Notes: generated from the letters alone by a model not told the origin. A DNA stretch of 31,869 nt from Candidatus Aenigmatarchaeota archaeon (GCA_043806535.1 JAZDGV010000100.1:1-31869); one strand, 5' to 3'; shown: positions 10,600 through 29,922, counted from the stretch's first letter. Made by a program: numbers and translations.

Positions 10600-10643
10600 T
10601 TTGTCACCTATAGCCTTTGATGTTGGTAATCTGAAACATGCGA

Positions 10644-10693
10644 GCAACTAGAAGCAGACACGCTGTCTGCTTCGGTCTGGCGCTTGTTTCTAC
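10644..10693 (+). repeat. REP-like palindromic element, family B
   Basis: GCAACTA-GAAGCAGACA-cgc-TGTCTGCTTC-GGTCTGG; perfect 10-bp stem, related to copies at 13342, 21293 and 22573. Confidence 0.7.
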
Positions 10694-12666: not shown

Positions 12667-13167
12667 ATGGAAATGCGCGACTTTTCCGGCCAAAAACTGA
12701 TGATTGTGGCGCTACTGGTTATTTTGATGTTTTTTGTAGGAGGCTCCATAACAGGCTACACGACATCGCTGATAAATCTGCAAAAAGAACTTTCAAACGC
12801 CACGGCCTGCGCCGATTTGTCAAAGAGTTTGGAAAGCGCAAGCGCGGATTTTGAAGCATGCGCTGAAACTCTCAATTCGACTTCTTCGCTGTTCACCGGC
12901 TGCAAGTCTAACCTGCTGACAGCTAACGCTGATACCATAAGACTGACCGCGGAAAACATAATCTACGAAAAAAACGTCACGGAACTCGGACGCGATGCAG
13001 ACAAGTGGAGCGATGCGTTCAAGAACGCGGCAAATGACGTTTGCTGCATAAGGAGGGCCGCTAACACGGACGCCGGGATAAGGTACTTCTATCTTTCCAA
13101 CGGTAAGACTTATTGCACAAATTCCGCAGACGCCTCGCTTGGAACGGTTGAGATAGCCTGCCCGTGA
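12667..13167 (+). CDS. Membrane-anchored hypothetical protein with coiled-coil and Cys-rich C-terminus
   Basis: N-terminal hydrophobic helix, helical middle region, C-terminal CC...C...C. Confidence 0.65.
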   Translation: MEMRDFSGQKLMIVALLVILMFFVGGSITGYTTSLINLQKELSNATACADLSKSLESASADFEACAETLNSTSSLFTGCKSNLLTANADTIRLTAENIIYEKNVTELGRDADKWSDAFKNAANDVCCIRRAANTDAGIRYFYLSNGKTYCTNSADASLGTVEIACP

Positions 13168-13241
13168 AATATTAATCTCTTTCTCGTGAGTAATCTTTAG
13201 GCGCAGACAGGAGAAGGCAAGCGCCTCCTTTGCCTGCGAAT

Positions 13242-13450
13242 GGGCCCGTAGCATAACCTGGATAATGCGGCGGCTTCCTAAGCCGACGATTGTGGGTTCA
13301 AACTACCCCTTTCGGCGCAAACTGAAACACAGGCGAAAACAGAAGCAGACAAATGTCTGCTTCAGTCTGACACTGTGTTTCGAGCTGTAACGAAAGCGGT
13401 AAGGTATCGGAAAGAAACTACGATAGGGTATGAAATTCCCACCGGGCCCG
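13242..13450 (+). tRNA. tRNA-Arg(CCT) with a 134-nt intron in the T-loop (59/60)
   Basis: Exons 13242-13302 and 13437-13450; acceptor stem GGGCCCG/CGGGCCC; A20; anticodon CCT at 13277-13279; strict BHB at the junctions. Confidence 0.92.
13303..13436 (+). other. BHB tRNA intron (59/60): family A element with a nested family B hairpin
   Basis: BHB formed by GGG/CCC, bulge AT|T, central TTCA/TGAA, bulge AA|C and TACCC/GGGTA. Family B stem at 13342-13363. Confidence 0.88.
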
Positions 13451-13511
13451 CCTTCTAACCAAGTTCGGAAAGAAAATATATACGGAAAATAAACGATTAT
13501 ATGTGGAATCG

Positions 13512-16500
13512 ATGAAAAGGACTTTGGCTGCGGTATTTCTAGCGCTCATTGCGATGGCTGTCTCTGCGACGAGCTTGGGATGGAGCGCAACAAAGGAGTT
13601 TAACGTAACCAACGCTCTCTATGTCAATTGGACCAACGCAGACGGCATGGGTCTGTATGCGATAAACATATCGATAGGGAACAATGCGACATACGACATT
13701 GTCGTGAACATAACAAACTCGACCAAGCTGATAAACAATTCGTTCTCGATAACAGCCAATTTCTCTGTGAGAAATGTGACCGGTTGGTCCGAGCAGGTTT
13801 CCGTGCCCGGCATGGGAACGCAGAACGTGTCGCTGATTTTCAACTATACCGGCCTGAGAGCCGGAAGATACGTGGGAACGTTTATAATCGCCAATGCATC
13901 AACCGCAAGCGAATACGCCAGTGTGAATGTCACGCTTGACATCTCGCTGACACTGAACGAAACAACGATGGACTATGAGAGCTTCTTTGGCAGACTTTCA
14001 TCGCCCGACCCGTATGAAAGATATTTCTTCAACGCGAGCTCCGGCGACTCGATAAACATACAAATCAGCACAACGCCGTTGTACCTTTTCCTTTTCGACC
14101 AGTCCGGCATCGTTGATATGAACGTTTCAAACACCACTCAATACCAGAACAGGTCGATTTCTTTCCTTACGCGCGGATACAACCAGTATTATGAACTCAG
14201 GGTCTACAACGCCTCAATTAGGGATTTCAACGGCTTCATCCGGCTCGGAACATTGAACACAAGCAGAAGATTCCTGGATTTTGGCTCTGTCAACACGACA
14301 TCTGCGACAGGACATTCAAATACGACCACCTACGATTTGAACAACACAAAACCGATAAACTTGGAAATGGTGAGAGAGTCCTGGCAGATGTATCTCAACA
14401 AGAGATATACGAACTTGGTAAACGCTTCCAATTTCACGGTTCTCGTTTCCAAAAATTACCAGAAGCTCGAGGCTGTGGTGGAATGGAGAAACGCGACAGC
14501 CGATTTCAACATGACCATATACAACTCCTCGTTCCAGCCGATCTCAGGCTATGCCAAAAGAAACCTGAGCAACGTTCCCGGCGTTGCGAAATCCCATGTG
14601 GTGGTTGAAAAGCAGTTCGACGAGTTCAACAAGACATGGATTGTGTCTGTTGTTGGAACGCACGGCGTTGAATACAACGTCACGATAAAATCGTTCATCG
14701 ATGCAAGCTGGATAAACAGCAGCTTCGGGAATTATCTGGGATACTATGTCATAAACGAGACGCAGAATTCATCGACTGTAAGCCTTAATATGACGCCTCC
14801 CGCGTGGCTCATCGACGGGCTTTACAACGGCTCTATCTCTTATGGTTATTCTGAGGCGAAGACGGAAATTCCATTCGGCATAAATGTCACAGGACCGATG
14901 CTCGTCGTCAACAACACGCTCGACATACTCAATTTCGCTGTCACGGACAATCTCGGCGCCAACAAGACAGTCAATTTCGGTTTCTTGATAAACAACACAG
15001 GCAGCTATGATTTGTATCTCGGCGATTACAACACGACGTCGTTGAACTTCTCCGACCATTCGATATGGTTCAACTACTCCTTCCAGAATCCCGTGCCTGC
15101 AGGCTCGTCCTCAATGCTTAATGTGCGATTCAACCTGACAACGCTGTCTTTCAACTCGGATGAAAGCGTTTACCTTGGATGGATTCTGCTCAACTCGACA
15201 AACGCGCATCCTTACAACGCGTTTAGAATAAACATGACATTCAACCTCACAAACAAGCTGAACTTCTTTGTTTACAACGTCTCGAACTACACTGGCAGCA
15301 ATTGGATAAGGCTGCAAAGCACGACGAACAACTCTTACATCAATGTCACCGTAAACATCACTTTCCAGAACGGGAGCTTTGTGCCAAACTTGAACCCGTC
15401 GAACTTCAGCGTATGGATGCAGAACACATTCGTGTATGAAGGCTCCAATTACACCTACAACGTCACTGATATGAATGTTACAGCTGTCCATACCAACGCA
15501 GGAGTTTACAAGTACTACGTGCTCAATGTGTCTGTCCCCTCAAGCGCGTTCGGGGGGAATTTCACAGTCTACGCCAGCGCAAGGGATGCGCCGGGCGGAT
15601 TTGCGAATTACGGGGCAGACAAATTCAGCTACTTGTATGTCAACAAGAGCCTGATGACCATAGACCTGACAAACGGGACCAGCGACGCGCCGACATTCTA
15701 TGCGACAGGGGATTATGACGTCAATATGACTGTTTTCAACCAAGGCGCGGAGCCTGCAACTGATGTCAACGTTTCAGGTGCCGCGTCCGGCTCGTGCTCC
15801 ATAAAGACTGGATACATGGAAGGGTTTTACATAGGAAACATCAGCTCATACTCAAGCTATTCCAACAGCACCATATGGAAACTGAGCATAGTCGGGAATG
15901 GGACTTGCACATTCGCGGTTGTTGGAAATTCGCCTCGCGGCGCTTGGCTGCTGAACGACACCATTGATTTCGGGTATGTTGGAGGATACCCTGCTCCTCC
16001 ATCAGGCTCGTCATCAGGAACGGGCGGGTCGGGCGAGAGCGCAATGAAACTGGAAATATTCACGAACAAAGCCAGCTACCTTAGATTTGAGGCGGCCGTG
16101 ATAACGTTCAACATCACTTCGACAGGAGCCGCTGTAAGCGGCGCCACGATAAGCTACAATATCACCGACTCGTCGGACAACAACCTCGTGTCAAGCGCAT
16201 GCTTGACAGGTTCGGACGGAAAATGCGTTGTCACGCACAACTTGACATCGGCTACGACCGGGGAATACAGAGTCGTCGCGAGAGCGTCCAAGACAGGCTT
16301 TTCCTCCTACTCTGCGACGAAAAGCTTCAGATTTTTCATGACCTCGGCTCAGATAACCTATTACAGCAGCTATGTCTCAGTTCTGCAGGGCTCAAAAAAC
16401 ACAACGGAAGTCAATGTAAAAAACAACGGCTCATTGCCAGTCGTTTTGAGACTGAAAATAACAAATATAACGGAAAGCTGGATTAAAACAACGCCGAGCC

Positions 16501-21236: not shown

Positions 21237-21292
21237 AGCATCACTATATCTTTGAACAAATAATTTAAAATCAGCGTAGACATTGCATAGTT

Positions 21293-21364
21293 GCAACTAG
21301 AAACAGACTATCGGTCTGTTTCAGCTGCGTGCCAACAGACGCATACCCATGGTATGCGTCAGCT
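21293..21364 (+). repeat. REP-like family B element followed by a second 10-bp hairpin
   Basis: GCAACTA-GAAACAGAC-tatcg-GTCTGTTTC, then GACGCATACC-cat-GGTATGCGTC (21338-21360). Confidence 0.7.
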
Positions 21365-22482: not shown

Positions 22483-22484
22483 AG

Positions 22485-22533
22485 CTACCCTTTTCTTTGG
22501 TAAAGAAAAGAGGTAAGGTATCGGAAAAGAAAC
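22485..22533 (+). repeat. tRNA-3'-flanking hairpin element, family A
   Basis: CTACCCTTTTCTTTGGTAAAGAAAAGAGGTAAGGTATCGGAAAAGAAAC; 47/50 positions match the copy at 29712-29761. Confidence 0.85.
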
Positions 22534-22572
22534 AAACGAAAGGAAAGGTTAGTTGCTAAGGAGGTGCCGATT

Positions 22573-22595
22573 GAAGCACATCGAAGATGTGCTTC
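22573..22595 (+). repeat. REP-like family B variant hairpin
   Basis: GAAGCACATC-gaa-GATGTGCTTC followed by GGT; same outer arm as the other family B copies. Confidence 0.6.
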
Positions 22596-22616
22596 GGTTT
22601 GCGCTTTCCTCGCAAT

Positions 22617-22689: not shown

Positions 22690-22691
22690 TG

Positions 22692-22741
22692 CTCCCCTTT
22701 TCTTTAAAAAAGAAAAGTGGTAAGCTATCCCAAAAGAAAAC
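22692..22741 (+). repeat. tRNA-3'-flanking hairpin element, family A (diverged copy)
   Basis: CTCCCCTTTTCTTTAAAAAAGAAAAGTGGTAAGCTATCCCAAAAGAAAAC, starting 2 nt after tRNA-Val(TAC). Confidence 0.8.
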
Positions 22742-22788
22742 GTAGGAAGGGTTAGCTACTAAGGGAAACCAAAGGTTTCCCTCGTAGA

Positions 22789-29588: not shown

Positions 29589-29711
29589 GAAACACCTTGT
29601 ATTTGGTTTGTTTCTGCATGACAAGAATGCTTTCTGTGATACAGATTCCACATTCTTGTCATAAACAATAAATTGCACTGGAAAATTAATAAATGGGTCT
29701 TTTGTCTATGT

Positions 29712-29761
29712 GTTTCTTTTCCGATAACTTACCGCTTTTCTTTACCAAAGAAAAGGGGTAG
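29712..29761 (-). repeat. tRNA-3'-flanking hairpin element, family A
   Basis: Minus strand reads CTACCCCTTTTCTTTGGTAAAGAAAAGCGGTAAGTTATCGGAAAAGAAAC, starting 1 nt after the tRNA-Ile discriminator base. Confidence 0.85.
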
Positions 29762-29762
29762 A

Positions 29763-29892
29763 TGGGCTCGACCGGATTCGAACCGGTGACCCACGGCATT
29801 TACGCTCAGTGGCCTTATAAGACCGTCGCTCTATCCAGAAGCCACAGTTCCTTTGAACACATTTGGCTTGGACCAGGCTGAGCTACGAGCCC
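29763..29892 (-). tRNA. tRNA-Ile(TAT) with two non-canonical introns (D-loop 20a/21, 29833-29870; 38/39, 29798-29814)
   Basis: Spliced 75-nt cloverleaf GGGCTCG..AGCCTGGTCA..ACGGT-CTTATAA-GCCGT..CGAGCCC-A. Intron 1 BHB: CTGG/CTGG central helix plus AAGCCA/TGGCTT. Intron 2 relaxed BHB: TTAT/GTAA. Confidence 0.85.
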
Positions 29893-29922
29893 ATTGCACT
29901 AAGAATTAAAGCTACGCTGAAA

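Follow-up and report, generated by a model that had tools for sequence, protein, structure and literature searches.

In a small groundwater archaeon of DPANN type, the gene for tRNA-Arg(CCT) is interrupted in its T-loop, at the non-canonical position 59/60, by a 134-nt intron composed of two dispersed hairpin families: a T-rich hairpin with a purine tail (family A) and, in place of the apex of that hairpin, a palindrome of a second, REP-like family (family B). The window analysed here is a stretch of 31,869 nt (GCA_043806535.1 JAZDGV010000100.1:1-31869), and positions are counted from its first letter. We consider it likely that the intron is an ordinary one, spliced by the tRNA endonuclease EndA, whose interior is fast-turnover passenger repeat DNA, and that the gene, as part of this reading, is a functional tRNA-Arg(CCT). 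The host genome assembly (G000) comprises 564 kb in 110 contigs, is 66% complete and has a G+C content of 48%. The closest named relatives of one of the flanking proteins are MAGs labelled Woesearchaeota/Nanoarchaeota, and parts of the locus also occur in public sequencing runs, all of them DNA metagenomes of groundwater and drinking water.

The whole gene, including the intron, occupies positions 13242-13450 on the plus strand, as do all parts of it described below. Exon 1 (13242..13302, positions 1-59) consists of the acceptor 5' strand, the D arm, the CCT anticodon arm and the variable loop, followed in its 3' part by the T-stem 5' strand and the T-loop TTCAAA before the intron. Exon 2 (13437..13450) consists of T60, the T-stem 3' strand, the acceptor 3' strand and the discriminator G; it is delimited by ARAGORN and by 14/14 invariant columns among orthologues. 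The intron itself (13303..13436) is defined by the sequence, by folds and by the other lengths found at the orthologous site. Its removal yields a cloverleaf tRNA-Arg(cct) (ARAGORN on the joined exons), and an exon-1 covariance model scores 85.3 bits for 13242..13302. On the unspliced window ARAGORN does not detect the gene, and Rfam gives a marginal 29.5 bits for the unspliced gene against a threshold of 29; an Rfam scan of 13180-13520 returned the tRNA plus chance-level matches only. Both coordinates and sequence of the 134-nt T-loop intron are as an earlier note, made from the sequence alone, had described them. That note had also named another intact tRNA-Arg(CCT), together with the lack of a spliced product, as a sign that the present gene might be a disrupted pseudo-tRNA: the assembly, 66% complete, yielded no second copy, the five genomes compared share invariant exons, and AGG is the most frequent arginine codon. 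Both A/B junctions were recovered at approximately 97% identity in contigs from other public runs, with contig X1 spanning 13124-13331 and contig X2 spanning 13376-13579. The intron is therefore no assembly artefact.

The intron is bounded by a strict hBHBh' motif (bulge-helix-bulge, BHB) of 5 + 4 + 5 pairs, 14/14 of them Watson-Crick. The 5' side of the motif (13292..13300) consists of GTGGG, the T-stem strand of the outer helix, and of TTCA, the first strand of the central 4-bp helix; the outer helix pairs 13292-96 with 13438-42, and the central helix pairs TTCA with TGAA (13297-300/13431-34). A constrained fold places the 5' splice site in the bulge AA|C (13301..13303) and the 3' splice site in the bulge AT|T, which completes the 3' side of the motif (13426..13437) after the inner strand GGGTA and the central strand TGAA. 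The inner helix is formed by TACCC (13304..13308) and GGGTA (13304-08/13426-30). The same 5' strand has an alternative partner, GGTA at 13398-13401, which closes the A hairpin. In silico, these two conformers compete within 0.7 kcal/mol: the enforced BHB conformer has -55.5 and the minimum free energy (MFE) structure -56.2 kcal/mol, with an ensemble share of the former of about 0.13. The fold of the T-arm plus intron has z = -6.0, and the outer helix, the central helix and the 3' bulge are kept without constraint. In the MFE structure a further small hairpin, TATCG..CGATA (13405..13425), pairs the A tail with the segment that links it to the BHB. The strict BHB with two 3-nt bulges, claimed in the earlier note, is present, with the caveat that its inner helix is predicted to have an in-cis competitor.

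The enzyme expected to act on this motif is encoded in the host genome. A single EndA gene (C68:1476-2126) codes for a protein of 216 aa with the N- and C-terminal endonuclease domains PF02778 and PF01974, and its best PDB match is the homotetrameric alpha4 enzyme of M. jannaschii (1a79, E = 1e-27, end-to-end alignment). Relative to the latter, it carries an insert of 6 residues, RGPKEA, which contains a lysine and lies immediately before the catalytic histidine. Loops L1 and L2, which broaden specificity and include a key lysine, are located near that histidine, and DPANN alpha4-type enzymes with extra loops accompany disrupted tRNA genes (PMC5829648). The RGPKEA insert is placed beside the catalytic histidine, as are L1 and L2, and may correspond to one of the published loops L1, L2 and L3. 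The ligase RtcB was not found in the 66%-complete host assembly; all of the family genomes searched (5/5) have it. About 200 nt before the EndA gene there is a tRNA-Phe(GAA), accompanied by a B-like hairpin and a copy of A (C68:1083-2126).

Family A follows a common plan: a hairpin of TACC, one mismatch or bulge, CTTTTCTTT / AAAGAAAAG and GGTA, followed by the tail AAGGTATCGGAAAAGAAAC. Three free copies in the window start 1-2 nt after the discriminators of three tRNAs. Copy A1 (22483..22536, plus strand) lies 2 nt behind the discriminator of tRNA-Val(CAC), copy A2 (22690..22743, plus strand) behind tRNA-Val(TAC), and copy A3 (29709..29762, minus strand) behind the tRNA at 29763-29893. The 5' end of the intron, CTACCCCTTT, is identical to copy A3, and the intronic A 5' arm CTACCCCTTTCG (13303..13314) shares 10 identical nt with it; the 3' arm and tail, CGAAAGCGG + TAAGGTATCGGAAAGAAAC, follow at 13391..13418. 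The family A match at both intron ends, which the earlier note had read by eye, holds in formal alignment: in a genome-wide nhmmer search the HMM of the three free copies matches 13390-13418 at E = 0.0027, and it scores 19.3 bits against the intron without the insert, a value to be compared with 0/2000 shuffles above 5.5 bits. In the tail, 21/22 positions are the same in the intron and the free copies. Further copies were found by HMM behind the tRNA-Phe on contig C68, behind a stop codon on contig C41 and, twice and in opposite orientations, within the 112-nt intron of tRNA-Glu(TTC) on contig C23. The canonical 37/38 introns of tRNA-Val(CAC), Ser(CGA) and Ala(GGC) in the window, and the canonical ones of all Arg tRNAs of the sister genus, are likewise built as A is, with a T-rich hairpin and a GATC/ACC-AAAAG tail. 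Introns at 59/60 of tRNA-Arg and at 37/38 of tRNA-Glu, Val, Ser and Ala thus contain A modules, and so do introns of other species. A stretch of 39 nt is identical between the free copy A3 and an inverted intronic A in the related genome L066. The occurrence of A in both orientations indicates that it behaves as DNA and not as a strand-specific RNA. Inverted A pairs flank the interiors of the host tRNA-Glu intron and of the L066 tRNA-Arg intron, most A copies being solo; no target-site duplication was seen. The sequence of A is strikingly constant across species although orthologous sites turn over, a constancy that could reflect function instead of selfish spread.

The apex of the intronic A hairpin is replaced by a B insert of 76 nt in two tiers (13315..13390), supported by the fold and by a leave-one-out HMM: a model built without the intronic copy scores it at 50.4 bits (E = 7e-14). 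The layout of the insert is that of 9-nt modules, namely spacer, stem, spacer, stem and a 4-nt loop, followed by the mirror image. The stem GAAACACAG/CTGTGTTTC (13324-32/13373-81) surrounds the core hairpin GAAGCAGAC-AAAT-GTCTGCTTC (13342..13363). An alignment of 18 copies of the core comprises 10 pairs, 5 of them with compensatory changes; the sole non-standard pair is the one closing the loop (columns 36/41), in 2/18 copies. Both the replacement of the apex by approximately 75 nt, with a stem around a B palindrome, and the nested composition proposed in the earlier note, A holding B holding B, are borne out by these HMMs and the fold.

Outside the intron, profile searches locate two further B copies on the plus strand of the window, one intergenic (10632..10690) and one 62 nt upstream of a tRNA (21286..21324). 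The host genome as a whole has 35 distinct B loci at E <= 1e-3. In a genome that is about 89% coding, 30 of these 35 loci lie outside crude ORF calls, mostly 0-30 nt after a stop codon and in both orientations. Each copy folds with an outer stem whose sequence varies from copy to copy, and some copies are multi-tier. The host genome has 27 copies of the B core and 0 of a reversed control; seven genomes of the sister genus have 0-2 copies of the core each. A search for the exact core with its flank in 185,579 species genomes gave 0 matches outside the host. The dispersed intergenic copies, the covarying core and the copy counts relative to the sister genus identify B, at the level of sequence, as a REP-like palindrome family that is expanded in the lineage of the host.

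Several candidate identities of the two families were rejected. A RAYT/Y1 transposase (PF01797) was not found in the host assembly (66% complete), and for TnpB there is only a sub-threshold zinc-ribbon match; an assignment of B as a REP with RAYT or as an IS200/IS605 derivative was therefore dropped. A viral or plasmid origin was rejected, as blastn against phage and plasmid collections gave no match; the exact A and B patterns are likewise not found in IMG/VR. E-value-based Rfam scans of A and B returned no family match, and readings of A and B as a K-turn, a C/D box or an H/ACA RNA do not fit the consensus by eye. About one quarter of the B loci lie within 150 nt of a tRNA; by a rough estimate this is not above the tRNA share of intergenic space, and we make no claim of enrichment. 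We further observed B arrays of up to four tiers (for example C19:1850-1990), and a pentamer GTCTG recurring every 9-10 nt or so in B 3' arms, such that the arm looks like a short-unit tandem array mirrored across the loop. Another small hairpin family, TTGATTAACCTTC..GAAGGTTA, occurs at C55:4890, C92:2093, C82:503 and C65:2075, with the B core at the apex in two copies.

The history of the intron can be read from orthologous loci. These were located via homologues of the 166-aa protein encoded upstream of the tRNA, which led to four syntenic loci: L063 (GCA_041643395.1), L065, L066 (GCA_053536555.1) and L069. A blastn search with exon 1 against the family found nothing and the exon-1 covariance model found the orthologues; likewise, an exact-protein search with the upstream gene gave no match and a homologue search was needed first. 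Across the five syntenic loci, flanking proteins are 67-96% identical. For a PIN-ATPase, identity is 96% between the host and L063, which are sisters; the other three are 94% identical within their group and 88% between groups. The exons are identical in all five loci (75/75, that is 61/61 + 14/14 columns), and all five clade members have an A-type intron at 59/60, the interiors of which otherwise do not align. The intron of L065 (41 nt) is a bare A hairpin. L063 (63 nt) and L069 (64 nt) share one type, an A hairpin plus tail; the host intron (134 nt) likewise has a tailed A hairpin, B occupying its apex; and the intron of L066 (210 nt) consists of a forward A, three other palindromes and an inverted A. 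No B was found in the 59/60 introns of L063, L065, L066 and L069. In these relatives the central helix has GGAA or GGAG opposite TTCA, which gives an A-G mismatch; their BHB is therefore relaxed, that of the host strict. Contigs X4 and X3, from other runs, have the start and end of an L066-type intron beside identical or 98%-identical flanks, a hint that different intron types may coexist.

Since the L063/L069 type is shared by the sister of the host and by the other subgroup, across the deepest split, it is probably ancestral. If so, the interior of the host intron is a replacement by an A variant resembling the free copies of its own genome. As judged from these alleles, B in the Arg intron is a lineage-specific addition. 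The comparison of alleles suggested in the earlier note thus yielded shorter introns of 41, 63 and 64 nt, and intron-less forms in three same-class genomes. Its proposed history, in which an A element became an intron and later gained B, has fared less evenly. The four orthologues are A-type and free of B, which supports B as an addition; an A-type intron at 59/60 was already clade-wide, which makes the conversion of an A element into the host intron too simple an account. That A preceded B is supported in part.

Beyond the clade, an intron of 31 nt with a strict BHB interrupts tRNA-Arg(CCT) at 59/60 in one genome of the sister genus, G005, and four other sister-genus genomes have an intact T-loop. 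The G005 gene (L049:1501-1653) has two introns, the 31-nt one and an A-like one at 37/38. Unrelated contigs of the JGI metagenomes have hairpin introns of 29-31 nt at 59/60. The exon-1 pattern gave 0 matches in the JGI metagenomes, and the exon-2 pattern matched distant lineages only, with short 59/60 introns. In unrelated archaeal contigs of this kind (L058-L062), short 59/60 introns end with TGAAAT before TCCCACCGGGCCCG in tRNA-Arg(CCT), tRNA-Arg(TCT) and another tRNA, some of these genes having additional introns in the variable or D region. The 5' leader of the host gene (13167-13241) is hypervariable between a conserved block GAGTAATCTTTAGG and the start of the tRNA-Arg: it has a three-tier B-type hairpin in L063 and a different hairpin in the host.

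A second locus, the cluster Val(CAC)-Val(TAC)-Ala(GGC), was recovered from GCA_041643395.1 and GCA_053536555.1 (the sister, L096, and L097, the latter being GCA_053536555.1). A free A copy lies behind both Val genes in the host and in L097; the sister has none there and B-type hairpins instead. One trailer A copy in L097 carries the 28-nt tail in three tandem copies, its Val(TAC) has an additional A-type intron in the D-loop, and its Val(CAC) intron of 201 nt contains CACAAG..CTTGTG palindromes of another family (L097:1112-2310). The tRNA-Ala(GGC) introns of L097 and L096 are identical except at the apex of the A-type hairpin, where 9 nt in the former correspond to a 43-nt B unit in the latter (B model E = 3.5e-9). 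From the sequence comparison, the L096 intron represents an independent B-in-A event, for which L097 provides the empty site. CTTTC and GAAAG flank the B unit in both B-in-A events, neither of which shows a target duplication. The earlier note had called the intron a safe harbour for cargo, a description that fits the pattern: tRNA introns, leaders and trailers are hypervariable, and the 201-210-nt introns of the relatives are full of other palindromes.

Further observations concern the tRNA genes of this family in general. With the Rfam tRNA model, the family genomes G001-G005 have only 20-25 tRNAs each at E <= 0.01, and many of the matches span 100-177 nt. Disruption affects a large share of the family's tRNA genes and conceals them from standard finders. 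In G045 (L014:1420-1561) a duplicate of the initial 14 nt of tRNA-Arg(CCT), with an A-like hairpin after it, is located 81 nt upstream, and in G023 (L018) a second copy of the final 17 nt of tRNA-Arg(TCT) is found about 200 nt further downstream; these duplications of tRNA ends may be scars of integration or recombination. A motif GGAAAGGTTAGCTAC[AT]AAGG with a GGGAAACC hairpin is found about 40 nt upstream of several tRNAs, with copies at 22541-22615 and 22746-22788 of the window and at C23:3105-3150 of the host genome, and one hairpin tip carries the B palindrome. The motif and hairpin together are probably a promoter or leader module of tRNAs.

These results can be combined into the following scheme. 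The T-stem, the 4-bp helix of T54-A57 with TGAA and the 5-bp intron helix would display both splice sites in 3-nt bulges; by analogy with established archaeal tRNA splicing, the alpha-type EndA would cleave both bulges, and an RtcB-type ligase would join the exons and probably circularise the 134-nt intron. The interior of the intron is an A module whose apex was replaced by the two-tier B palindrome. More generally, A and B in this clade occupy the parts of tRNA transcripts that are discarded, namely 37/38, 59/60 and D-loop introns, 5' leaders and 3' trailers, B being also placed behind the 3' ends of genes. Splicing requires no more of the intron than the BHB at its base, hence apical cargo would be tolerated; and since cargo is tolerated, the interior could be swapped and enlarged quickly while exons and splice geometry stay fixed. 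We infer from this that the cargo is neutral, in that only the intron base matters, and the comparison of copies suggests that A and B spread at the DNA level. A stronger version would make A and B hairpin elements that are active at the DNA level and specialised for what is discarded from tRNA transcripts, with A moving between trailers and BHB-compatible sites inside tRNA genes, thereby creating and replacing introns, and B entering hairpin apices; it is a tentative proposal that we regard as possible and rather doubtful.

Alternatively, the cargo might be a functional RNA, the excised circular intron and the trailer A acting as small RNAs or protein platforms, for instance as processing chaperones, as decoys or in the protection of 3' ends. 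The near-identity of the A tail in the intron and in free copies (21/22) would be explained, as would the compensatory changes that preserve hairpin pairing. Moreover, free A begins at a distance of 1-2 nt from the RNase Z site, downstream of it, and intronic A right at the 5' splice site, so that both contexts would yield a similar RNA 5' end. Haloferax, whose tRNA-Trp intron carries a C/D box guide, offers a precedent. The inverted A copies in the introns of the host tRNA-Glu and the L066 tRNA-Arg, however, would give a different tail RNA sequence, and orthologous sites gain, lose or swap A and B though the flanking proteins are 88-96% identical; the sister species lacks A in both Val trailers. 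Neither an Rfam match nor a C/D or H/ACA box recognisable by eye is found in the cargo. We regard a functional RNA as unlikely. The idea that the tRNA is a disrupted pseudogene, killed by a repeat insertion and never spliced, draws on the failure of the standard tRNA finder and on the RtcB gene not found in the 66%-complete assembly. It would leave unexplained why the exons are invariant in five diverged genomes with wholly different introns, and why the BHB is intact and even stricter than in the relatives. The gene is also the only one found for Arg(CCT) in a genome whose top arginine codon is AGG and which encodes EndA, and a pseudo-tRNA is accordingly very improbable.

A different objection concerns mobility. 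The A hairpin could be a recurrent solution, such as a T-rich terminator or processing hairpin, that arose by convergence or spread by local gene conversion, and B could have grown in place by template switching. The A 5' arm CTTTTCTTT indeed resembles an archaeal oligo-T terminator, one A-like hairpin (C41) directly follows a stop codon, and in another family T8 comes after a trailer module (L019). The B arms of regular 9+9-nt modules look like a tandem duplication mirrored across the hairpin, and neither a transposase nor a target duplication was found for either family in our searches. Convergence is nevertheless a poor account of 39 identical nt, including the non-palindromic tail, across genes, positions, orientations and species, and T-tracts would be counter-productive in introns if they were terminators. 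In the tRNA-Ala pair, moreover, the filled and the empty site share identical flanks and a complete B unit appears at once. An origin of the repeats in place is improbable on this evidence, and an EndA-spliced intron with passenger repeats in its interior is the reading that we adopt.

How archaeal tRNA introns are gained is a question for which a review gives the mechanism as unknown (PMC4090602), and a 2026 preprint on Asgard tRNAs describes tests of copying, mobile elements and reverse transcription in which no general route emerged (10.64898/2026.10.13.758758). The locus described here makes this question testable, as it provides five alleles with identical exons and different fillings at one site; further handles are the presence of A in free and intronic form in either orientation and a clean filled/empty pair for B. 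If A and B are indeed active elements, the clade would show a route of intron arrival and turnover in action, with the free and the intronic state in one genome. The case also shows why the tRNA sets of DPANN archaea look incomplete.

Several known systems resemble parts of this picture. The Haloferax tRNA-Trp intron, which carries a C/D box guide, is likewise a long structured BHB intron, and by analogy the present one is probably also released as a circle; here, in contrast, there are no guide boxes and no Rfam match, and the cargo differs among close relatives. Bacterial REP/BIME palindromes, IS1397, which inserts into REP loops, and archaeal PATE/MITE elements are possible counterparts of B. 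Like REP/BIME, B is short and extragenic, has many copies behind genes with covarying stems, and has units at hairpin apices. It differs in that no RAYT/Y1 or TnpB gene was found in the host assembly and in that its tiers are built from a regular 9+9-nt module; terminal inverted repeats accompanied by a target duplication are also lacking. Archaeal BHB introns at non-canonical tRNA positions, 59/60 among them, were reportedly described by Marck and Grosjean in 2003 and by Sugahara in 2008. The present intron shares with them the position, the hBHBh' geometry and the logic of EndA plus ligase, whereas its host is of DPANN type, not a crenarchaeon, and encodes an EndA of alpha type. With 134 nt, and as many as 210 nt in a relative, it is also a long intron, and it derives from two dispersed repeat families. 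Position 59/60 is listed among the non-canonical archaeal BHB tRNA intron sites (PMC4090602). In Caldiarchaeum subterraneum, heterogeneity of the tRNA-Thr locus has been described and a 1.8-kb element with a recombinase gene implicated (PMC3293823). In both cases the intron content of one tRNA gene varies at the population or near-species level; the variation described here involves hairpin repeats of 45-76 nt, with no enzyme gene found in the host assembly. [quoted passage not shown] 2010) and their spread is attributed to a DNA-level 'transposition' of unknown mechanism (PMC4090602). A is such a near-identical module in different tRNA genes and positions. Unlike the Thermoproteales introns, it is also found outside introns, directly behind tRNA 3' ends, and in both orientations and as inverted pairs, and at one site close relatives carry a natural set of different fillings. 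What sets this case apart is the combination of a module that is both free and intronic, a second, REP-like family in its apex, and an allelic series in the relatives.
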